Virus record (IMG/VR): IMGVR_UViG_3300020045_000605
Coordinates: 1 to 29,618 of that record
From: a virus
Lineage: Duplodnaviria > Caudoviricetes
Strand: one strand, 5' to 3'
Length of the DNA stretch: 29,618 nt
Positions within the stretch are counted from its first letter, which is position 1. The number at the start of each line of letters is the position of its first letter. The notes beneath the pieces are model-generated. The model had not been told where the DNA came from, searched no databases, and was given only the letters and a program-made list of their open reading frames with translations. A program made the position numbers and the translations under genes. This document shows, piece after piece, positions 237 through 23,377 of this stretch.

Positions 237-1958
237 TTACTGAATCGTCTTTGCTACATCAATATACTTTTTCAAAATCTGTTCTCTCTGATCCTTTAAC
301 TGACCAAGTCTCATTTGGACATTTTCTGTACTTGGCAGTTTTTCTAACTTATTAATAACCGCCTTATTTCTGTTCAATGCTGCTTGAAAATTCTCCTGTA
401 ACTTCATTTGCTTAAACCGATCTAGGTTAGCTTCAATGAAGGTTCTTTTATCAGTAGAATTTTCAAGCTGTTTTTTGAACAAGTCTGCAGCTTTCGTTGC
501 TTCAGAGAAGTCTTTCTCAGCTAATGATTTCTTATTCTCTTCTCCTCTCCCATAATGCCAATAATACAACTTACCTAATCCAGGAATAGAATCAATTATT
601 CTTGCATGATCAAAGCTACTGGTATCACCAGAGACATAATTATCATAACCTTCTGCTAAGTCTTTACTTGCAGAATTGATGAACTTCATCGGTGGTAAAA
701 CCTGCTGCAACATTGCTGATCCAAATCCTTCCTTAGATACTTGCATTCTGGTAAATCTAGAAGCTCCTCCCATTGTAAGTAAATTCTCAATTACATTATC
801 AGCAAATCTAGTTTCTTTTCCAAGCATCCAATCTTTTAATTCATCTGCACTAGCATTAGCAAGTGTAAGCAATGCCAACAGTTGAACCATATTCGTAAGT
901 CCTTGAATCTTCTGTTGTGGATTATCAGACTTAAGATTATGAATAACCTCCCTTCTGAAAACATCAAATTGCTTAATGGTATAAGTCTTGAGCATATAAG
1001 CAACTCGACCATTACCAGCCTTGAGATAAAATTCAGGCATTTCAGAAAGTGCTGCTGGTTGAAAATCAAGCACTTTTGAATAAAGCAACATCTTCACATT
1101 ATCACTTGGAACATCAGCTAGAATTTCCTGGACAACATCAAGAGATTTGCTTCCAAATGTTGGCTTGATCTTCTTAGCCAGGGCTTCAGGATCTCGTTTG
1201 GCTTCAGCCTTATATTGATCAAGTGCATTATTAATTAATACTTCTTTACCAATTGAATCAACCTTCTCCAGTCCTACAAGTTTAAATGCTTTACTAACTG
1301 CCTTACCTAATGTAGTTCCATCAGCAAACTCTTGAGCAATTCTTTCAAATCCCAGATCCTCTTTAGTTACTTCAGACTTGCCAGTTACTGCTTTACCAAG
1401 ATTTCTTACTGTTCCTAAAAATCCACTCGGCGTCCATACCTTCCCTACATACATTGCCCAGGCAAGATCACCTATCTGAGTTATTGCTGATGCAGGATTC
1501 GCCATAACATCAATATATGCAGCATTCTTAAATGCATTAACTACACCAGTAGTTCCATGCTCATTGAATCTTGCAGTTAAAATGTCTTTAACTGTCTTTT
1601 CATCTTTCGGAGCAATCCTACCAGCTACACGCATTTCATCAATATAAGCACCAATGTTTTCAGTATAATCACGTTGGATTTTATACATATTTAAACTCTG
1701 ATCAATTCTTGCAAGGTCTTCATTCAGCTCAATAATTCTATCTTGATATTCTGTAAAAGCTTCAGGATTTTCTGTCTGAGCCATATCAGCAAGCTGAGTA
1801 AATTTTATCAATTCAGCATTCTTTCGTTTGCTAGATGTTTTAAGAGCGCTGATTCTCTCTGGAACTTTACCAAAGAATTTCCTAGCCTCGATCTTCTTAG
1901 TCATACTGTAAACATACTGCATCAAAGACGCATCAGCATCCATGTAGAATTTTGCATA
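237..1958 (-). CDS. C-terminal part of giant internal virion/DNA-ejection protein (continues 1960-6918 across a frameshift)
   Basis: In the 592-aa ORF, the first ~19 residues overlap the upstream ORF out of frame. The joined read ...VFETIPK|YAKFYMDADASLMQY... is natural. The helical C-terminal region is typical of podovirus ejection proteins. Confidence 0.75.
   Translation of the reverse strand, partial: YAKFYMDADASLMQYVYSMTKKIEARKFFGKVPERISALKTSSKRKNAELIKFTQLADMAQTENPEAFTEYQDRIIELNEDLARIDQSLNMYKIQRDYTENIGAYIDEMRVAGRIAPKDEKTVKDILTARFNEHGTTGVVNAFKNAAYIDVMANPASAITQIGDLAWAMYVGKVWTPSGFLGTVRNLGKAVTGKSEVTKEDLGFERIAQEFADGTTLGKAVSKAFKLVGLEKVDSIGKEVLINNALDQYKAEAKRDPEALAKKIKPTFGSKSLDVVQEILADVPSDNVKMLLYSKVLDFQPAALSEMPEFYLKAGNGRVAYMLKTYTIKQFDVFRREVIHNLKSDNPQQKIQGLTNMVQLLALLTLANASADELKDWMLGKETRFADNVIENLLTMGGASRFTRMQVSKEGFGSAMLQQVLPPMKFINSASKDLAEGYDNYVSGDTSSFDHARIIDSIPGLGKLYYWHYGRGEENKKSLAEKDFSEATKAADLFKKQLENSTDKRTFIEANLDRFKQMKLQENFQAALNRNKAVINKLEKLPSTENVQMRLGQLKDQREQILKKYIDVAKTIQ
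688..805 (-). repeat. Internal copy of the left-end inverted repeat
   Basis: Reverse complement matches 1-118. Confidence 0.95.
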
Positions 1959-4900
1959 CTTTAGGAATAGTTTCAAATACACGAGCTTTAATGTTGCCAG
2001 GCCCACCAATACCATAATGCCTACCTAAGATCATATTACTTATTATGTCTGCTTTAACTTCAGGAAACTCTCGTTCAAATTGTGTTTGAGTTATTCCGAG
2101 TTTCTTTGCTTCAGATCTGATTGCTTCAGTAAATTCAGCACGCTGAGAAATTCCTTGAGTTGCCTGCAGGAAGCCTTCAGTGTCTTTGATTACACGCGGC
2201 CAGTAATCTTCAACAAAACCTACATCATATCCAACTTCAATTGCATCAGCACGAATTTGATCAAGCTTAGATCGAAGCAATTTTACCTGATCAGTCAGTC
2301 CATACTTACTCTCAATCCTTTCAATCTTTCCTGTGTCTGAATTTAGTCTAGCCCAATTCCATTCACTCTTATCAACTGGTGACATGTCTTTAGTTGCATC
2401 AAGCAATGGCTTTGCAGTCTTTAGAACATCAATGATCTTTTGACTAGTTTTAAAATCAAGCCATCTCAGGTGTTCTGAAAGTTCAGGATCAACTTTCTTA
2501 AGTCGAGTTGATATAGAGCCTAGAGCTTTATCAGCAAGTAACTTTACTTCATGGTATTTTATTCCTGCCTGTTGGACAATATTCTTCAAGAGATTATTCT
2601 TTTCTGCATATACTGCATCATAATCACTTTGAGGTAAACGTTGTTCGATTTCAAGAGATTCGTAAGATTCATTAATAGTTTGATTACTTTGATTAATATT
2701 CTCCTGACTAGCCAACTTTGCAATAATGCTTAATGTTTCACCAAAAACATTCTTATTCGTTCCTTGTATCCCCAATGCTTTCATTACCACTTCAACAAAG
2801 GCATCCCAGGCATTTCGCAAAACTCCTTTATCAGCAATAGTAGTTGCTTTCAGCAAAGTCTGAAACTGTTCATTTCCCATTGCTTGTGCAAGAAATTCAA
2901 ATTCATTCAGCAATCCATATGCAACACTATCATATTTAAAATTACCTTTCAGATTTTCTTTATATCCTAAACTTGATTTTTCAGTTTCAATCAAACTCAT
3001 TTGTGCTGGAGTAATAATAGCTTCTTTAATAGCTTTCAATTTTACTCGATCCATCAAGAGCTTCACTTGATCTCTGATTGCTGGATTCGCAATCATTTCA
3101 CGTGCAGTAACTGCATGCGTGATTTCATGAATTGAGCTAGTTAATTGTGACGGATCACGCAGAGTTATAGTGTTTACTTTTCCTGCTACATAATTTGCAC
3201 TTCTAACTGATGGATCAATTATTACTTTGATATCAAGCTTGGATTCAGGTATGAAGTCTGCAATAAAGTTTGCAAGCTGGCCAGTTAGGCCTTCAGCAGA
3301 TTTTACTGCAGAAAGAATATTGCCAAGGTTTGTTTCTTGTTTTATACTTGCTGATGGATTATAAGCTTGTCCATTCGACAATTCAAACATTGGCATACCT
3401 TCATTGAGAGCTTTAGCTTTCATTCTCTCAGTGATTGGTAAAGAAAAAACATTTAATGTATTAGCTTCATAACCATCCTGATAATATTTATTTGTTAAAG
3501 TATTTAACTCTCCTTGAGGAATCTCAATCTTTTCAACTTTTGCATTTCCCCACTTACCACGATTGAATTCACTATTCAACATTCTTGGTAAGTCAACAAG
3601 ATATCTATTAACAATAGAAGATACGTTTCTATAATCACCAACAAAATAAGAAGTTCCTTGACCTAAATCACTTTCTCTTGCTTCTATTTCTGGCCAACTT
3701 TCAATTTGTTCTATTTGTTGAAGTGTACTTGGCCAAGAGATTTTATCAAAACCATTCTCAGCAGCATATCTGACCATTCGCTTCATTGCAAGTAAAGGCC
3801 ATGTTTTCTTGAATGGAGCGTCTGGAATATCACTACGTCCATCAGGTAAATTACTTTGATCCGTAGCAATTAACTCATAGAGTTCTGCATCTTCTTTAGA
3901 TACTCCTTGCTCAACAAGAGGCAATGCATCAGGATAGCCCATTAAATATGCTTGAAAATCAGTATTAGGATATTTCTGCTCAATACGATTTAATTCAGAT
4001 GTTGTAGTAATTTGATTTTTAGTTTGATAACCACTTTTTCTCCCAGCCTGATGCCAATCACTTTGAACCTCGTTAATGAATAAAACTTTATTACCTTCAG
4101 AATCAGTTCTTTCATCAAATCTAATATGAGCTAAAATGTTTGGTGCATCAAAATGAGCTGAAGTATAATTACTATTAGAAAGTTTAATAGCTTTTTTATC
4201 TAATTCATCTAATTTATCAGTTTCTTCTTTTGTTAATTTTTCCTCCAGCTTAAAATAATTTCCTTCGTTATATTTTTCTACCATTTTTTGGTAAAAATTT
4301 TTATATTCTTCATTTGCAGTATTTTGTATTTCAGGAATAGTAATTAAAAGTTCTTTATAATTTTTTCCACCTGGAAGCTTAGCATCAGAGTACTGAGTAT
4401 TTGTTTCTCTTATAGTAACTTCTTCCAGCTGAACATTATTTTCCTGAATAAAATTCATCAAAGCATCTTTACTTACTTTTCCTTCTTGCTTATCAAGCCA
4501 TTCATTCAAGCCGATCCAATCAAGTTCTTCCTGCTTAATACCAGGATAGTTCTTAATCATTCCTTTCCATTGATCAGGAGTTGCTTGCTTCTGCTGAAAT
4601 CCTTTCACAACATTTTCAAGTGCAGAATACCATGCATTTGCAGGATCATTTCCTAATTCTTCAAAAGTATCAAACTGCTCAACTGAAGTTCGTATTAATG
4701 CATTATCTTTTTCTAATGTATCAATCTGATTTAAGAAATTTATTCTTTCAGTTCGATCAATTGTTTTATTTAATTGTTCTGTTAACTTTGCAATTTCAAA
4801 GTTGTTCTTATCTACAAGAATTTGTTGTTGGTCGGTCAATGGAACTTGCCGTTCATCAGTGAACGAACTTGTCTGACCTTTACCCATACCTGCTTTTTCA

Positions 4901-6918
4901 AATGCATAAGCAGATTGTTCAGCAGACTTTGTCGTAACTTCATTATAAGCATCAACATTAAAAGGACGTTTTTCCTCAGCAAAAAGCTGAGTATAAAACT
5001 TCTCACCTGCTTCTTGTGCTTTAGCAGCTTCTTCTTGCTTAACAATATCAGAAAGATTATTTTTTATGTAATCAGTATACTCCGCAATCTTTTCTGCATT
5101 TGGTTCAACATTAACCTTAGTCATTAACTGATCAAGATATTGCTTCCTATCTTCAGCCTTAACATTATTAATATGATTAACATAATCAGCAATATTTTTT
5201 GAACTTAATTCTTCCTGAAATACTTTCGCTGAGTCAATTGCATCTTTTTCAATTCCAACTTTATCACCAACATTTACTGTACCAAAAAGATCATTTAAAA
5301 TCTTTTGTCTTTCTTCACGAGTTGTATATGGAGCAAATGATTTATTTTCAACAATGTCTTTCTGTTTATCAGTAAGAGTATTCTTCTCTTTTCGAAGATT
5401 AAAAACTCGATCAGCGATTAGTTTTTTCTTTTCAGGATCAGTTTCTTTAGCATATTGATCAACAGCAATTGATTCTCTTTTATTAATAGCGTCAAGATCA
5501 GTATTAATCTTTTGTGCTTCATCAATTACTTTTTGCCTGTTTTCTTCACGTTGGGCAGTAAACTTATTCTCAATATCTTTGATTGCTTTTTCTTCAGGAG
5601 ATAGTTTTTCATATTCTTTCTTAACTAATTCTTCCTTAGCTTTTATTCCTGCATTAATTTTATCGAGTAAAACCTGATTATTCTTATTCTCATAAACAGT
5701 CTTTGATAACAATTCAGCAGGTTCAATATTTAATTCTCTTGCCTTAGCTTCAAGTTTATCAACATCATTCAGAATTTCTTGATTTAATTTAAGATCAACA
5801 GATAGTTTTTGAACACTATCATTAAGTTGATCTTTTTCAAGATTAAGAATATTCGCTGCACGTCTATCTAATTCAATCTCTTGATCAGTTTTTAATTTAG
5901 CATCTTTTGCCTGACCAGAAAATACTGCATTAACTCCAGCACCAGCTCCGCCACCTACTGCACCAGCAGCCATGCTTTCAACAATTCGTTCAATATTTTG
6001 AGCAGTTAAAAGTTTTTCATCAGTATTAACTACAGTATTAAGAATATTAAGAGCTTCCTGACTACCTTCTTGTAATGCTTCTTGTGGAATATTAGTTAAA
6101 AGTTCTTTTGCTGATTTCTTAATAGTTCCAGTTGCCCCTTTACTAATAGCATCAACAAGAGTATCAACCAACTTACTATTACCACCAGCGAACTCTAATG
6201 CAGTTGCTAAAGAACCAAAAAGCATTGCTGTTCCAGGTGCATCAATTCCTTTTTCTGCTAACAATTCTCCATACATACCACCAGACTCTACTGGCATTAC
6301 AGCAGCTCCAATACCAGCTTTAGCACCAAGTTTTTTCAGTGCCTGACTAGTAACTTGCTTCTTTATTTGATCTTCAGCAAGCTCACCTACACTACGTTTC
6401 AATGCTTGTTCTGTAGCTTTTTCAATTCCTTTCTTAAGAATTGTTTTACCAGCTACACCACCTGCAACAGTACCTGGACCAGGAGCTACAGCAGATCCAA
6501 CAAGTGCACCAACTCCAGCTTCAACCATACTCGGAACTAATTCACCAAGAGTTCCTTGAACATAATCAATAGTTCCTCCAACGCCTGCATCACCAGTATA
6601 AACATCTTTAAAAGAATACTTTGCAGGATATTGTTTTACCTCTTCAATATTACGCTTGTATCCTTCAAGACCAAAATCTTTAACTGATTCACCTACTGAT
6701 TCAGCACCAAGATTTTTAAGTCCCTCACCTGCAAGTGCAGTTGCACCATAAGCAGATGCCTGAAGATTCTGCAAACCTCTCTGAATACCTTGTTTAAAAT
6801 CAGGCGTATCAGGATTTACATTAGATTTAGTAATACCAAAAATATCATCAAATTCTCCAGAAGCAGTATTTTCTTGTTCCGAAGAAATACCAAAAATATC
6901 ATCGTAATTATCAGCCAT
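1933..6918 (-). CDS. Giant internal virion/ejection protein, polyvalent type (N-terminal part)
   Basis: ~1660-aa ORF, start MADNY with upstream AAAGGA. It has a Gly/Ala-rich hydrophobic N-terminal region, long coiled coils, an EVQSDWHQ-containing globular domain and a zincin motif HEITH followed by EFEFLA. It is last in the structural operon. Confidence 0.75.
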   Translation of the reverse strand: MADNYDDIFGISSEQENTASGEFDDIFGITKSNVNPDTPDFKQGIQRGLQNLQASAYGATALAGEGLKNLGAESVGESVKDFGLEGYKRNIEEVKQYPAKYSFKDVYTGDAGVGGTIDYVQGTLGELVPSMVEAGVGALVGSAVAPGPGTVAGGVAGKTILKKGIEKATEQALKRSVGELAEDQIKKQVTSQALKKLGAKAGIGAAVMPVESGGMYGELLAEKGIDAPGTAMLFGSLATALEFAGGNSKLVDTLVDAISKGATGTIKKSAKELLTNIPQEALQEGSQEALNILNTVVNTDEKLLTAQNIERIVESMAAGAVGGGAGAGVNAVFSGQAKDAKLKTDQEIELDRRAANILNLEKDQLNDSVQKLSVDLKLNQEILNDVDKLEAKARELNIEPAELLSKTVYENKNNQVLLDKINAGIKAKEELVKKEYEKLSPEEKAIKDIENKFTAQREENRQKVIDEAQKINTDLDAINKRESIAVDQYAKETDPEKKKLIADRVFNLRKEKNTLTDKQKDIVENKSFAPYTTREERQKILNDLFGTVNVGDKVGIEKDAIDSAKVFQEELSSKNIADYVNHINNVKAEDRKQYLDQLMTKVNVEPNAEKIAEYTDYIKNNLSDIVKQEEAAKAQEAGEKFYTQLFAEEKRPFNVDAYNEVTTKSAEQSAYAFEKAGMGKGQTSSFTDERQVPLTDQQQILVDKNNFEIAKLTEQLNKTIDRTERINFLNQIDTLEKDNALIRTSVEQFDTFEELGNDPANAWYSALENVVKGFQQKQATPDQWKGMIKNYPGIKQEELDWIGLNEWLDKQEGKVSKDALMNFIQENNVQLEEVTIRETNTQYSDAKLPGGKNYKELLITIPEIQNTANEEYKNFYQKMVEKYNEGNYFKLEEKLTKEETDKLDELDKKAIKLSNSNYTSAHFDAPNILAHIRFDERTDSEGNKVLFINEVQSDWHQAGRKSGYQTKNQITTTSELNRIEQKYPNTDFQAYLMGYPDALPLVEQGVSKEDAELYELIATDQSNLPDGRSDIPDAPFKKTWPLLAMKRMVRYAAENGFDKISWPSTLQQIEQIESWPEIEARESDLGQGTSYFVGDYRNVSSIVNRYLVDLPRMLNSEFNRGKWGNAKVEKIEIPQGELNTLTNKYYQDGYEANTLNVFSLPITERMKAKALNEGMPMFELSNGQAYNPSASIKQETNLGNILSAVKSAEGLTGQLANFIADFIPESKLDIKVIIDPSVRSANYVAGKVNTITLRDPSQLTSSIHEITHAVTAREMIANPAIRDQVKLLMDRVKLKAIKEAIITPAQMSLIETEKSSLGYKENLKGNFKYDSVAYGLLNEFEFLAQAMGNEQFQTLLKATTIADKGVLRNAWDAFVEVVMKALGIQGTNKNVFGETLSIIAKLASQENINQSNQTINESYESLEIEQRLPQSDYDAVYAEKNNLLKNIVQQAGIKYHEVKLLADKALGSISTRLKKVDPELSEHLRWLDFKTSQKIIDVLKTAKPLLDATKDMSPVDKSEWNWARLNSDTGKIERIESKYGLTDQVKLLRSKLDQIRADAIEVGYDVGFVEDYWPRVIKDTEGFLQATQGISQRAEFTEAIRSEAKKLGITQTQFEREFPEVKADIISNMILGRHYGIGGPGNIKARVFETIPKVCKILHGC

Positions 6919-6944
6919 TATCAATCCTTTAGATAAATTTTATA

Positions 6945-14688: not shown

Positions 14689-14854
14689 TGTTTAATTCCT
14701 CATTAACAATTCTAATACAATATTTTATAGCTTGAACTCTGATCTTTGCATCAATACCTTTTGGATCAATTATACCTGCATCATCTTTTACTAAGATAAG
14801 TTTTTCTTTTGCAAGCAAACTTTTAAGACGATATAATATGTTTTTATCCTTCAT
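14678..14854 (-). CDS. Unannotated 58-aa hypothetical protein (MKDKNILYRL...EELNNVI)
   Basis: Hand translation. ATGA overlap with the upstream stop; ends overlapping the next gene start and fills the gap exactly. Confidence 0.7.
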   Translation of the reverse strand: MKDKNILYRLKSLLAKEKLILVKDDAGIIDPKGIDAKIRVQAIKYCIRIVNEELNNVI

Positions 14855-15114
14855 GGTGCAATAACCGTTTTAAGTTTTACTCCAGCTCCAAGAACAAGAA
14901 GTCCTATAATACCTGCAAGTAACAATTTTATTAATGTATTTCTTACTGTCTTTTTACTATCATTTACTGCAGTAACAATAGCTTCCGTAAATTCAATAGA
15001 AGCAAGCATTCTTTTAGGATCAATTCCATTAAATCGACAATGACTATCATTTTCATTTAATGCTTCAATAAAAGCTTGAATGTCTTCATTAGATAATTTT
15101 CTACGATCAGTCAT
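14851..15114 (-). CDS. Small membrane protein (holin/antiholin-like, one C-terminal TM helix)
   Basis: 87 aa; hydrophobic LIKLLLAGIIGLLVLGAGV segment. Confidence 0.6.
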   Translation of the reverse strand: MTDRRKLSNEDIQAFIEALNENDSHCRFNGIDPKRMLASIEFTEAIVTAVNDSKKTVRNTLIKLLLAGIIGLLVLGAGVKLKTVIAP

Positions 15115-15131
15115 GTAAAGAGCCTTTTAGA

Positions 15132-15443
15132 TTAAAGATTAGTAGATTCAGAAATAACATCCTTAATCTTTTCTGACTTCCGCCCAAGACCAATTGCCGT
15201 CCAACCTAAACCAAAACTTGCTGCTCCTAATTCAATAGATTTCCAAGCCATATCAATATCTACAGGCCCTGATATTTCAGGAGTATTTAAAGTAGGCCAA
15301 ATAAGTTTCGCAAACATTACAAAACCCATGATAATTTTCACTATTCCTACAAGCAATAATACTATCGCTCCAGCTAAAGTGTTTTTTCCATCAAGTTTAT
15401 TTGATAAATATTTAATTCCAAGCATAGCCACCATTTTATCCAT
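15132..15443 (-). CDS. Holin-like membrane protein
   Basis: 103 aa; DGKNT followed by hydrophobic helices and a basic C-terminal GLGRKSEK; SD AAGGAG. Confidence 0.6.
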   Translation of the reverse strand: MDKMVAMLGIKYLSNKLDGKNTLAGAIVLLLVGIVKIIMGFVMFAKLIWPTLNTPEISGPVDIDMAWKSIELGAASFGLGWTAIGLGRKSEKIKDVISESTNL

Positions 15444-15699
15444 GAGCTCTCCTTTCTTTATACCTTTTAATCATTTTCGCCTTGATCCAAAAGACCATAC
15501 CAAATAATCTGACAAAAGTAAAATAAGTTTTAGCAATCTCCAGATTGCTTGCACGAGTAATTCAAAAGAGCAATTTCATATCTGCAGACAATCGATCAAT
15601 TAGTTGCTCTTCATAATCCTCATCATGAACCCTTCATCAAAAACTTATATCATAACTAAATGGAGAGTCAGGTGATAATGTACACCAATCTTTTTTCAT
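15436..15699 (-). CDS. Phospholipase A2-like protein with three in-frame TGA codons at cysteine positions; candidate selenoprotein (87 aa)
   Basis: Translation: MKKDWCTLSPDSPFSYDISF**RVHDEDYEEQLIDRLSADMKLLF*ITRASNLEIAKTYFTFVRLFGMVFWIKAKMIKRYKERRAHG-TAA. TGA codons are at 15637-15639, 15634-15636 and 15562-15564. The ORF starts 2 nt after the upstream stop and overlaps the downstream start by 8 nt. Confidence 0.75.
15532..15549 (-). promoter_or_regulatory. Putative bacterial SECIS hairpin for TGA codon 46
   Basis: AGCAATC-TGGA-GATTGCT is a perfect 7-bp stem starting 12 nt after the TGA, with a G-containing 4-nt loop. Confidence 0.6.
15610..15629 (-). promoter_or_regulatory. Putative SECIS hairpin for tandem TGA codons 21-22
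   Basis: TTCATGAT-GAGG-ATTATGAA is an 8-bp stem (1 G-U). The loop starts with G, 15 and 12 nt after the two TGAs. Confidence 0.45.
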
Positions 15700-15701
15700 A
15701 A

Positions 15702-16157
15702 CTATTGTCCAGTAACTCGACTGTTATCGGTGCTGGGGTTATACATATTCTCCCAGGACTGCGTTTTGGTGATAGCTGTAGTCGCAGTAAATGGGCTATC
15801 AATCTGTGCATATCCTTTAGCAGAAGTTTGGTTAAATCCAATAAAGGTATTATTGTTGCTGCGATTCAGGTTAAAGCCTTGGCCACTTCCCCCACCACCA
15901 TAAACCGTCCGGAAAACCTCAAGCGCAAGATTTCCCCACGGCAGGGCCGAGGTAATAATTCCTGTTACAGAATCCTCATTCTTTGTGAACATCCCCGTAT
16001 AAAGAGCAGCATTCATTGAAGCCACACAACCAGCCTCTCCTTTGCAATTTGCTACGGCATCAGAAAATGCCCCCATGAATGCGAGTCTGTCGGTTTGATT
16101 GCCAGCACACCCTGAAAGCATCGTCAAAACCGCGATTAAAAGAATTGTCCTGATCAT
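15702..16157 (-). CDS. Lipoprotein
   Basis: Signal peptide MIRTILLIAVLTMLSG followed by lipobox Cys (LSGC); SD GAGG. Confidence 0.75.
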   Translation of the reverse strand: MIRTILLIAVLTMLSGCAGNQTDRLAFMGAFSDAVANCKGEAGCVASMNAALYTGMFTKNEDSVTGIITSALPWGNLALEVFRTVYGGGGSGQGFNLNRSNNNTFIGFNQTSAKGYAQIDSPFTATTAITKTQSWENMYNPSTDNSRVTGQ

Positions 16158-16194
16158 AATTTCCTCGTTTTGGTTGGTGTTCGTTTCTAATCAA

Positions 16195-17685
16195 TCACAC
16201 GAACGTAGGCATAACAACAATCGCATGAATCGCCGCACATGCAGTATGATTTTCGTGTTCTCCGTCAGCTGTGTAGCCAGGAGTCCATTTACCAGAATCA
16301 GTAGTTGATTCCACTAATCTCGTAATCTCGATAAAACTACCATTACCAGATATTCCAGCCCGTATTGCCGCGTTTAATGTGTCATACGTTGACGCATAGC
16401 TAATTGTTTGGTTTTCGACCGTCGCCCAACTATCTGTTGAGGTGGTGTATGGGGTTATAGTTGTCTGATGAACAGTGTTACGGGTATTGAGTCTGGCCCT
16501 AACTGACGCAAGCAAAGCCAGAACTTGGCTGGTGGTGTTAGTTTTACGATCATTTTCCCCACAGGCGCAAATAACCTTATTTGTATAATTAGATAGGACG
16601 CACCTAATTGTCCCGTTCACACCTGCCAAAACCCCGGCAGTTCCGCCTGGAATTGCAGCAGAAATGAATGGTATCTTCAGATTGAAAAGCACTGGAGATA
16701 CCTGACCATAGTTGGTGTTACCGACGGTACCGCTGTCTTTACCAGGAGAGTTTCGGCTATCCCCAAGAACCAATACCGAATCTTTTCTTGTCGGGGCTAT
16801 AATTGCAGATGGGGTATAAACAATGTTCCGTTGAGCCACTGCACCCCCGGCAGTTAAATCTGGAGTAGTAACTCCATACTGTGCCCCCTCACCTAGTCCT
16901 GCGGCTACCTGGTTTGTGCAAATCCTATAGACAATTCGTGTTGCGGAGGTTAGGAACGAGCGAACATAAAACGCGGCATTTGCTGGGATATCAACATCAA
17001 CAACATCACTTATGATATTGCTGCCACTCGGTATTGTTCCGCTTGCCGCACCCACTGCGAATGTAACCAGAGTAAATGTACCAGCTGGGTACTCAATGCT
17101 TGCCTTGATTGTCGCATCACCACCGTGTGCTACTTCTTCCCCATAAAAACTATCAAAAACTAAACGCATCCCAGTGAGATCCTGGTTCGTAACATGGTAA
17201 CTGCGGCTCATTATTTGTTGAGCTGAGTCAACACTTGATGTAGGTACACCGGCATGAGTCGCAACCTGTCCTAAATACAGGTCCGAGTCCGGTGCGCCAA
17301 GATATCGAATAATCTGTGCTGATTTTGCCGCTTGTGTCTCGTCGTAGCCAACAATCCCTCTCCTGCCGATCCACACAAACGATGTGTTTAGCAGCTCATA
17401 CCATTCAATGCCAAACCTGACTATCGGGGTATCCGAGCCATCAAAAAACACACCTCCACCCTCCAGCGTGTCGAGGGTACGCATTACGGTCGTGTCTGGA
17501 AACGCCCATGACGCCGCCAGTAAATCGGCAAAAGTTCCGGTGGTAAGGGTTATGCTTGATTCTCCGATAATATCAACCCCTTCAACCCACCTGGCGATGT
17601 AGCCAGATTGTAGAGAGTTGCCACCATATCTATACATTCCAGCCATGGAAGATTGTAATGAATTTACAATAGATGAGCTAAGCAT
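16195..17685 (-). CDS. Virion-associated SGNH/GDSL hydrolase (esterase/deacetylase)
   Basis: SGNH blocks: VLVLGDSR, IPGG, CGEND, DGEH. The catalytic domain is preceded by beta-rich domains. Confidence 0.8.
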   Translation of the reverse strand: MLSSSIVNSLQSSMAGMYRYGGNSLQSGYIARWVEGVDIIGESSITLTTGTFADLLAASWAFPDTTVMRTLDTLEGGGVFFDGSDTPIVRFGIEWYELLNTSFVWIGRRGIVGYDETQAAKSAQIIRYLGAPDSDLYLGQVATHAGVPTSSVDSAQQIMSRSYHVTNQDLTGMRLVFDSFYGEEVAHGGDATIKASIEYPAGTFTLVTFAVGAASGTIPSGSNIISDVVDVDIPANAAFYVRSFLTSATRIVYRICTNQVAAGLGEGAQYGVTTPDLTAGGAVAQRNIVYTPSAIIAPTRKDSVLVLGDSRNSPGKDSGTVGNTNYGQVSPVLFNLKIPFISAAIPGGTAGVLAGVNGTIRCVLSNYTNKVICACGENDRKTNTTSQVLALLASVRARLNTRNTVHQTTITPYTTSTDSWATVENQTISYASTYDTLNAAIRAGISGNGSFIEITRLVESTTDSGKWTPGYTADGEHENHTACAAIHAIVVMPTFV

Positions 17686-23050: not shown

Positions 23051-23377
23051 TTAAAAAAGTAACTTAGCTAGTACATCATTATCATTAATCAATACATAAG
23101 ATTCGTTATCCTTTCCAGTCATAGCTACACCAGAATAACGTGCATAACTGATCTTATCTCCAACTACTGCCCAAGGCATACCATCATCAATGTCAGTCCA
23201 TGCACCAGGGCCAATAGCAATTAATCTTCCAACAGTAGCTGCTTGTTGTTCTTTATCCTGAGCTGTTTTAGGAATGTAAATACCACCAGCAGTCTTTTCT
23301 TCAACTTTTTCAGGAAGTACAAGCAAATGCCCACCAGTTGGAATGATACCTGATTGATTAATGTTTTGTTCGCTCAT
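23051..23377 (-). CDS. groES: Co-chaperonin GroES (Cpn10)
   Basis: IPTGGHLLV...EEKTAGGIYIP mobile loop, AIGPG, VGDKISYARYSG, YVLINDNDVLA. Confidence 0.92.
   Translation of the reverse strand: MSEQNINQSGIIPTGGHLLVLPEKVEEKTAGGIYIPKTAQDKEQQAATVGRLIAIGPGAWTDIDDGMPWAVVGDKISYARYSGVAMTGKDNESYVLINDNDVLAKLLF

Follow-up and report, generated by a model that had tools for sequence, protein, structure and literature searches.

What are three in-frame TGA codons doing in a short phage gene, at the very positions where its relatives carry cysteine? The question is posed by the open reading frame (ORF) 15699..15436 on the minus strand of IMGVR_UViG_3300020045_000605, a viral contig from IMG/VR without an assigned host, 29,618 bases long, with 36% G+C and an estimated completeness of about 44%. 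We refer to this whole stretch as the window; all of its genes lie on the minus strand, to which the features given below belong. The ORF encodes a protein resembling small phospholipases A2 (PLA2). We consider it probable, if well short of certain, that its UGAs, lying on Cys columns of a real PLA2-like phage gene, are read as selenocysteine (Sec, U) by the SelB/tRNA-Sec system of the host.

A PLA2-like frame with TGA on its cysteine columns

From its ATG at 15699 to its TAA at 15438-15436 the frame comprises 87 codons, and it translates as MKKDWCTLSPDSPFSYDISF up to the first TGA, RVHDEDYEEQLIDRLSADMKLLF between the second and the third, and ITRASNLEIAKTYFTFVRLFGMVFWIKAKMIKRYKERRAHG beyond the last. 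The TGAs at codons 21 (15639-15637), 22 (15636-15634) and 46 (15564-15562) are its sole interruptions, without any other stop or frameshift. The tandem pair (15634..15639) occupies the 'CC' of a CCxxHD motif and the third TGA (15562..15564) the fourth conserved Cys column; the first conserved Cys, Cys6 (15682..15684), is encoded by TGT here and by TGA in no family member seen. The upstream ORF (15702-16157) ends in TAG 2 nt before the ATG, and the downstream one starts at an ATG (15443) that the TAA overlaps. A preliminary description of the locus had pictured such a frame, open but for TGA at codons 21, 22 and 46 and fitted tightly between its neighbours, and in every point that could be checked it was correct.

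A first possibility is that TGA is a sense codon throughout the code of the phage or its host. Stop-codon recoding is indeed known in phages, where it is concentrated in late genes (bioRxiv 10.1101/2021.08.26.457843; this and the other publications cited here are cited from excerpts). The 33 ORFs that tile the window, however, end in TAA (23), TGA (6) or TAG (4), three of the TGA stops lying in ATGA overlaps, so that TGA does act as a normal stop elsewhere, as had been described. Among the tiled ORFs only the PLA2-like one contains an in-frame TGA, the remaining 66 Cys codons of window ORFs are all TGY (Y, pyrimidine), and both Trp codons of the PLA2-like ORF are TGG, again as described. Furthermore, several family genes both contain TGA in frame and terminate in it (loci L011, L038, L229, L061, L259 and L266). 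Stop usage in the window and these TGA-terminated relatives therefore exclude a change of the whole code for practical purposes, and we give it next to no weight.

A word-indexed protein search found no homologue of the translated product, whereas an exhaustive HMMER search did, with 152 cluster representatives matching at E<=1e-3. Translated with TGA as Cys (P0001), the protein matches phrog_6098, a phage protein of unknown function, at 1.7e-17, its residues 1-75 covering profile positions 2-75 of 78. Against PF09056, the prokaryotic PLA2 family, it scores 19.6 bits, which is below the Pfam gathering cut-off of 29.4 bits. An alignment of 74 sequences shows C6, C22, H25, D26 and G67 to be invariant and C21, Y29, D40, C46 and V63 nearly so. 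When these 74 members are taken individually, matches at E<=0.01 are to PF09056 (15 members, best 4.1e-6), DUF1353 (eight, weak) and PLA2G12 (six). The family profile finds solved PLA2 structures in the PDB, namely 7ygk (9.4e-8), 4aup, the group XIII enzyme of Tuber borchii (1.8e-7), and 1faz from Streptomyces violaceoruber (7.4e-7). An AlphaFold (AF2) model has a mean predicted local distance difference test score (pLDDT) of 89.7 and a predicted template modelling score (pTM) of 0.79, with helices at 19-31, 36-50 and 53-86. Its best four Foldseek matches are all PLA2s, at probabilities of 0.98-1.00 and template modelling (TM) scores of 0.57-0.59, but with weak E-values of 0.17-0.31.

DUF1353 includes TtaP, an experimentally demonstrated PLA2 whose His/Asp dyad, H70/D85, is spaced by 15 residues and has an Asp beside the His (PMC11525133). 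The same arrangement is seen here: H25 and D40 are 15 residues apart and D26 is adjacent to H25. The H25-D26 codons, the 'HD' of the PLA2 motif, lie at 15622..15627 in columns invariant in the alignments, and D40, the predicted dyad partner by this spacing analogy, is at 15580-15582. By analogy with TtaP and SvPLA2, H25, D26 and D40 are the predicted catalytic residues. Because of the profile and fold matches to PLA2 structures, together with the His/Asp spacing shared with TtaP, we assign the product, on sequence and model comparison, to the group XIV/DUF1353 superfamily as a mini-PLA2; no Pfam family is reached by threshold. The PLA2-like character proposed in the preliminary description is borne out by these matches, as is the integrity of the HD, Y and D residues, H25, D26, Y29 and D40 being invariant both in a set of six sequences and in the set of 15 described below.

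TGA and Cys alternate in the same columns

The window TGAs fall on invariant or nearly invariant Cys columns in both the six- and the 74-sequence alignments, and homologues do carry Cys at positions 6, 21, 22 and 46 (columns 1-4), as had been expected. A scan of viral contigs, whose only condition was TGY-TGY at the CC site, produced 43 loci. Three of them (L010, L011 and L038) are interrupted at the fourth Cys column, in every case by TGA, and the frame continues beyond it to VR.FG; no locus among the 43 has any non-TGA stop in that column. A tail-fibre match in an initial locus scan (L003), arising through the peptide KTYFTFVR, was spurious and was discarded.

Scanning viral contigs for TGATGA gave 54 stretches, 10 of them with in-frame spacing, and six family members: L059, L069, L075 and L076, the last the same as L082, are of the type U-U...U, and L061, a GC-rich provirus (contig G004, whose only phage-similarity hits are weak matches of the baseplate to Bordetella phages), is U-U...C. 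In metagenome contigs the same pattern gave 26 stretches and two members, L228 (the same as L069) and the new L229 (U-U...U). The mixed pairs TGATGY, TGTTGA and TGCTGA gave 41 stretches in viral contigs and five members, L257, L259, L265 and L266 (U-C...U) and L290 (C-U...U), L257 and L265 being recognised by eye after the motif filter had missed them. The TGATGA scan of genome contigs yielded 118 pattern matches and no family member.

Altogether there are 15 distinct TGA-bearing sequences including the window, the other 14 being 31-61% identical to the window protein. Written over columns 1 to 4, six of them, the window among them, are C-U-U-U, four are C-U-C-U, three are C-C-C-U, and C-C-U-U and C-U-U-C are found once each. 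Tandem TGA is thus present in the window, L059, L069, L075, L076, L229 and L061, and TGA at the fourth column in the window and 13 other sequences; the first column is TGA in none of the 15. With TGA read as Cys, C6, D11, D17, C21, C22, H25, D26, Y29, D40, C46, V63 and G67 are invariant across the set. The predicted alternation of TGA and TGY among relatives was therefore found at precisely these Cys columns. For comparison, the Global Ocean Sampling (GOS) selenoproteome study asked for at least two independent UGA-containing sequences per family (PMC2398784), against the 15 distinct ones here.

Might the gene nevertheless be a pseudogene produced by nonsense mutations? It has three stops within 46 codons and is skipped by gene callers, and four database proteins of the family, P0008 (the same as L010), P0081, P0108 and P0123, are calls of 43-46 residues that end just before the fourth Cys column. 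These suggest further family genes shortened by callers at a stop there, the identity of the stop having been seen in DNA for P0008 only; the earlier expectation that standard callers would miss such a gene agrees with both its omission here and these truncated relatives. One relative does look broken: an unannotated homologue at 1495-1731 of phage T5S1-k141_444551 (PQ867842.1; L007) is interrupted by an in-frame TAG outside the Cys columns, its C-terminus has diverged, and it looks like an ordinary decayed copy, unlike the TGA-at-Cys set. The probability that three random nonsense hits would all strike the four Cys codons of the ORF is, however, only 1.2e-4 to 3.5e-4, and TGA is confined to the same Cys columns in 14 other sequences, at identities that exclude a single recent lineage. 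None of the 15 TGA-bearing sequences has a frameshift, and the catalytic and core residues are intact. Among six aligned clade members, whose synonymous sites are saturated, the mean ratio of nonsynonymous to synonymous change (pN/pS) is 0.25 ahead of the first TGA, rises to 0.38 in the stretch between the TGAs and reaches 0.52 beyond the last, and the hairpin described below co-varies. The preliminary description had named random stops, frameshifts and neutral evolution beyond the TGAs as signs of decay; relatives are free of such stops and frameshifts, and their pN/pS remains below 1 past the TGAs. These comparisons indicate that translation continues past the TGAs under purifying selection and that 15699..15436 is a real, conserved phage gene. 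The recurrent columns, open frames and pN/pS values therefore lead us to reject a pseudogene as extremely improbable, and context-dependent recoding of the UGAs is well supported by the comparative evidence.

The Cys columns also vary in a way that bears on their pairing. Checked by eye, 23 of 150 representatives have xC..HD in place of CC..HD, and at least 20 of these 23 are, by inspection, also without the fourth Cys. Because columns 2 and 4 are lost jointly in relatives, we take them to form one bridge. A bridge between columns 1 and 3 is common to group XIV PLA2s in the profile alignment, so the predicted pairing is 2 with 4 and 1 with 3. In four sequences columns 2 and 4, and no others, are TGA.

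This pairing tells against leaky, non-specific UGA read-through, for example by tRNA-Trp and perhaps hairpin-stimulated, as a means of holding a dangerous lipase at trace level with a residue other than Sec or Cys at the UGAs. A membrane-active lipase may need tight dosing, and the base after the UGAs shows a bias of the kind such a reading would favour. Where that base is free to vary (after 15562-15564 and 15634-15636 and at the same columns in 14 loci), U never follows an in-frame UGA, whereas T is the commonest base after the true TGA stops of the window (four of six); this absence may reflect a weak termination context or only codon composition. Yet the UGAs are confined to columns that must cross-link, where Cys is invariant or lost as a pair in relatives, and both partners of one predicted bridge are UGA in the four sequences just mentioned. 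A bulky Trp at three sites of a three-helix core is implausible, and three successive leaky stops would leave almost no product. We regard leaky read-through as quite unlikely.

Hairpins after UGA46 and after the tandem pair

If the UGAs are decoded by the Sec machinery, a selenocysteine insertion sequence (SECIS) might be expected downstream. The hairpin AGCAAUC-UGGA-GAUUGCU (15532..15549) starts 12 nt after UGA46, with 19 nt from the UGA to its apical loop. It has 7 bp and the loop UGGA, and its minimum free energy (MFE) is -8.6 kcal/mol for the segment and -6.9 kcal/mol for the isolated hairpin. The bacterial SECIS (bSECIS) model calls for a loop of 3-9 nt, a stem of 4-16 bp, G at loop position 1 or 2, a UGA-to-loop distance of 16-37 nt and an MFE of -7.5 or lower (PMC13188914), and the window hairpin agrees with all of these when the segment value is used. 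A hairpin lies 11-15 nt downstream of the UGA in all 14 sequences with TGA at the fourth column. These hairpins have 6-7 bp, a loop of 3-6 nt and a distance of 16-22 nt from the UGA, and read individually 11 of 14 follow the G rule. A strict script accepted geometry and G rule together in 10 of the 14, at -5.8 kcal/mol or lower, the other four deviating by a mismatch, a bulge or the lack of a G early in the loop. Whole-segment folds range from -7.6 to -15.1, save for L229 at -4.3. As few isolated hairpins pass -7.5 kcal/mol, we report geometry, segment MFE and covariation separately.

RNAalifold applied to six full genes recovers the UGA46 helix. Covariation was assessed in one fixed register, which penalises the four slightly shifted hairpins, against 500 shuffles. 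In nine sequences 84.1% of cells are paired, compared with 73.7+-2.9 in the shuffles (reached in 0/500), and in all 14 the figure is 78.6% against 67.6+-2.8 (0/500); slid registers pair 13-52% and 17-50% of cells, respectively. Double-sided changes affect five of seven pairs in the nine sequences (9/500) and 16 cells in the 14, against 7.5+-2.2 (0/500). The covariation score is 0.504 against 0.310 for the nine (0/500) and 0.436 against 0.267+-0.043 for the 14 (0/500). Compensatory changes accompany amino-acid changes, for example from Leu/Glu in the window to Glu/Phe in L010. Structure past the fourth-column codon is also stronger where that codon is TGA (mean z-score -1.57, n=9) than where it is TGY (-0.46, n=36; one-sided p=0.009).

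The tandem UGAs present a different picture. A local hairpin, UUCAUGAU-GAGG-AUUAUGAA (15610..15629), begins 4 nt after UGA22; relatives do not conserve it, it arises largely as a side effect of the HDEDY codons, and L010, which has Cys-Cys at the tandem site, forms a similar one. The fold of the window gene also contains a long stem between codons 30-32 and 43-45, which RNAalifold did not recover as conserved and which was set aside. All 11 sequences with UGA at column 2 or 3 as well as column 4 keep the column-4 hairpin, and the only such sequence without a column-4 UGA, L061, has its own local hairpin, CCACUAC-GGGC-GUAGUGG, 21 and 24 nt from its UGAs. Since the column-4 hairpin is always kept with a column-4 UGA and L061 has a local one, the pattern hints that the tandem pair may be decoded either with the help of the distal hairpin, which lies about 94 nt further downstream, or through a SECIS-independent route.

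A hairpin of this kind would also be used if the UGAs were read as Cys through a selC*-type tRNA-Cys(UCA) that a SelB paralogue delivers, giving an ordinary four-Cys PLA2-like protein. The route exists: in delta-proteobacteria such a tRNA is encoded beside a second selB copy, and when tried in E. coli it inserted Cys at an opal Sec codon (PMC5389517). Cys insertion also fits the alignment of TGA with Cys. A change from TGY to TGA would then, however, be costly to translate and offer no chemical advantage, and yet it is kept at 31-61% identity; the change is position-specific, the first Cys never being TGA; the system is described for two delta-proteobacterial groups only (PMC5389517); and no such tRNA was found on the window or four related contigs. 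Insertion of Cys by this route strikes us as unlikely. Because Cys would bring no gain, the change is specific to position and it has been kept across deep divergence, Sec is favoured, and what points to Sec rather than Cys from a special tRNA is the co-varying SECIS-like hairpin, which follows the third UGA only.

Several observations weigh against Sec. At the tandem site, the local hairpin of the window lies 15 and 12 nt from UGA21 and UGA22, under the 16-nt minimum of the model. Of the 12 sequences in which column 2, column 3 or both are UGA, just two have a fitting strong hairpin, L061 and L266 (GGUACGA-GGC-UCGUACC, 26 nt from its UGA), and no conserved structure serving the tandem UGAs emerged from single folds, RNAalifold or explicit enumeration. 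After column 4, the isolated hairpin reaches the model's -7.5 kcal/mol in just two of 14 sequences. Strong hairpins (z -2.2 to -3.3) also occur about 10-45 nt past the fourth Cys codon in the all-Cys loci L021, L027, L035 and L045, and L061 has one past its fourth-column Cys codon; the hairpin is therefore not exclusive to UGA, and those of all-Cys members may be relics of a SECIS after reversion from Sec to Cys or may have a second role. No Rfam SECIS family was detected in 15300-15800, permissive E-values giving noise only, and neither the window nor the four related contigs yielded a tRNA, tRNA-Sec included. Bridges of a purely structural kind are an unusual place for Sec, and the losses from three inefficient recoding events within 87 codons would compound. 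The preliminary proposal that UGA is recoded as Sec, or as Cys by a specialised tRNA, accordingly stands as far as recoding is concerned; that the residue is Sec we infer, and for the tandem UGAs no conserved SECIS accompanies the claim.

Genomic setting, proposed function and known systems

The gene sits between the head and adaptor modules of the window. Its upstream neighbour (15702..16157, 151 aa) carries, as read from its translation, a signal at its N-terminus and a lipobox-like LSGC motif, with no match in Pfam or PHROG; the downstream neighbour (15132..15443, 103 aa) reads as a hydrophobic, holin-like membrane protein, a 44%-identical homologue of which is present on the contig of L059. 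A close relative of the window phage, contig G002, which holds L075, is syntenic with it, its capsid and portal proteins being 90% and 75% identical, and it keeps all three TGAs. A megablast of 14800-16400 against phages gave no matches. In cultured phages, Mannheimia PHL101 and 3927AP2 and Ralstonia RSP15, all-Cys homologues adjoin tail-fibre genes.

Two genes upstream of the PLA2-like gene, a 496-aa protein (16195-17685) matches phrog_8480, 'lysophospholipase L1-like esterase', at 3e-43. The two could form a functional pair of PLA2 and lysophospholipase, or the esterase could simply be a tail-associated SGNH esterase. Elsewhere in the window, the head module includes a GroES-like co-chaperonin (23051-23377; phrog_3188, 1.9e-16), and a 1663-aa ORF (1933-6924) has its TGA stop 83 nt within the next listed ORF, 237-2015, which probably starts later than its first listed ATG.

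What might Sec do in such a protein? In the window product, Sec21-Sec46 would form a diselenide and Cys6-Sec22 a selenenylsulfide, replacing two disulfides. Selenium bridges are much harder to reduce than disulfides, and they could let the fold lock in the reducing cytoplasm in which phage proteins are made. The host SelB/tRNA-Sec system would read the UGAs, the hairpin about 94 nt downstream or another route serving UGA21 and UGA22, and the enzyme is predicted to act on membrane phospholipid at lysis or entry. This fuller picture, of a phage enzyme with three Sec residues whose diselenide and selenenylsulfide stand in for the disulfides of a PLA2 fold and whose tandem UGAs have no SECIS of their own, being served by the distal hairpin or independently of SECIS, is one we put forward tentatively, judging it rather doubtful as a whole.

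As had been supposed, no description of a phage selenoprotein of this family came to light. No account of a phage selenoprotein of any kind turned up in full-text literature searches, which returned only papers on eukaryotic viruses; phages, viruses and phospholipases go unmentioned in the excerpts of a 2026 review of prokaryotic selenoproteomes (PMC13188914), and phages in those of the GOS paper (PMC2398784). Were the UGAs to encode Sec, this would be a bacterial virus exploiting the Sec machinery of its host for a protein of its own, and a case, rare in nature, of Sec serving as a structural staple and not as a redox catalyst, with a predicted diselenide and a neighbouring Sec-Sec pair. Insertion at tandem UGAs without their own SECIS would be a mode not known in bacteria, and it bears on how strictly bacterial Sec insertion requires a nearby SECIS. 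The locus brings together three UGAs in one gene, an adjacent pair, a predicted diselenide, SECIS-less upstream UGAs and a graded series of relatives, from all-Cys through C-C-C-U and C-U-C-U to C-U-U-U, that would serve as a natural test of what Sec adds to a disulfide. On the practical side, such genes are shortened or skipped by gene callers.

Among known systems, bacterial SelB/SECIS genes, with E. coli fdhF as prototype, share with this family a UGA on a Cys column, a hairpin after the last UGA, several UGA-bearing sequences and the continued use of TGA as a stop. They differ in that the gene here belongs to a phage and packs three UGAs into 87 codons, the upstream two being adjacent and without a conserved SECIS, and in that its sites are structural bridges of a hydrolase and not a redox active site. 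The selC* system of tRNA-Cys(UCA) and SelB* resembles it in reading UGA by context where Cys or Sec is expected, but inserts Cys, is described for some delta-proteobacteria only and, in the excerpts of that study, has no phage link for this tRNA type (PMC5389517). Stop-recoded phages (TAG to Gln, TGA to Trp) likewise have late genes with in-frame stops read as sense, but by genome-wide reassignment in late genes through a suppressor tRNA (bioRxiv 10.1101/2021.08.26.457843), whereas here one gene is affected, TGA still terminates others, and the codon aligns with Cys and not Trp.

As regards the enzyme itself, the secreted PLA2s of groups XIII and XIV (S. violaceoruber 1FAZ/1LWB, Tuber borchii 4AUP and Sciscionella 7YGK; PF09056) have the same core motif, C..PD...xC..HD..Y...D...Y..VR.FG, the same three-helix core and His-Asp, and the first disulfide, from the first Cys to the Cys before xxHD. 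The window protein is about 40 residues shorter than these, has no signal peptide, and has in addition a Cys pair at columns 2 and 4, UGA-encoded here, and a long amphipathic C-terminal helix. TtaP of the typhoid-toxin islet is, like it, a small PLA2 without a secretion signal, of bacterial or prophage type and distantly related to group XIV, with H-D...D spaced by 15 residues and a phage-type lysis gene adjoining (PMC11525133). Unlike the present family, which depends on its four Cys/Sec columns, TtaP has, according to the excerpts of that report, no Cys bridges at all (PMC11525133).

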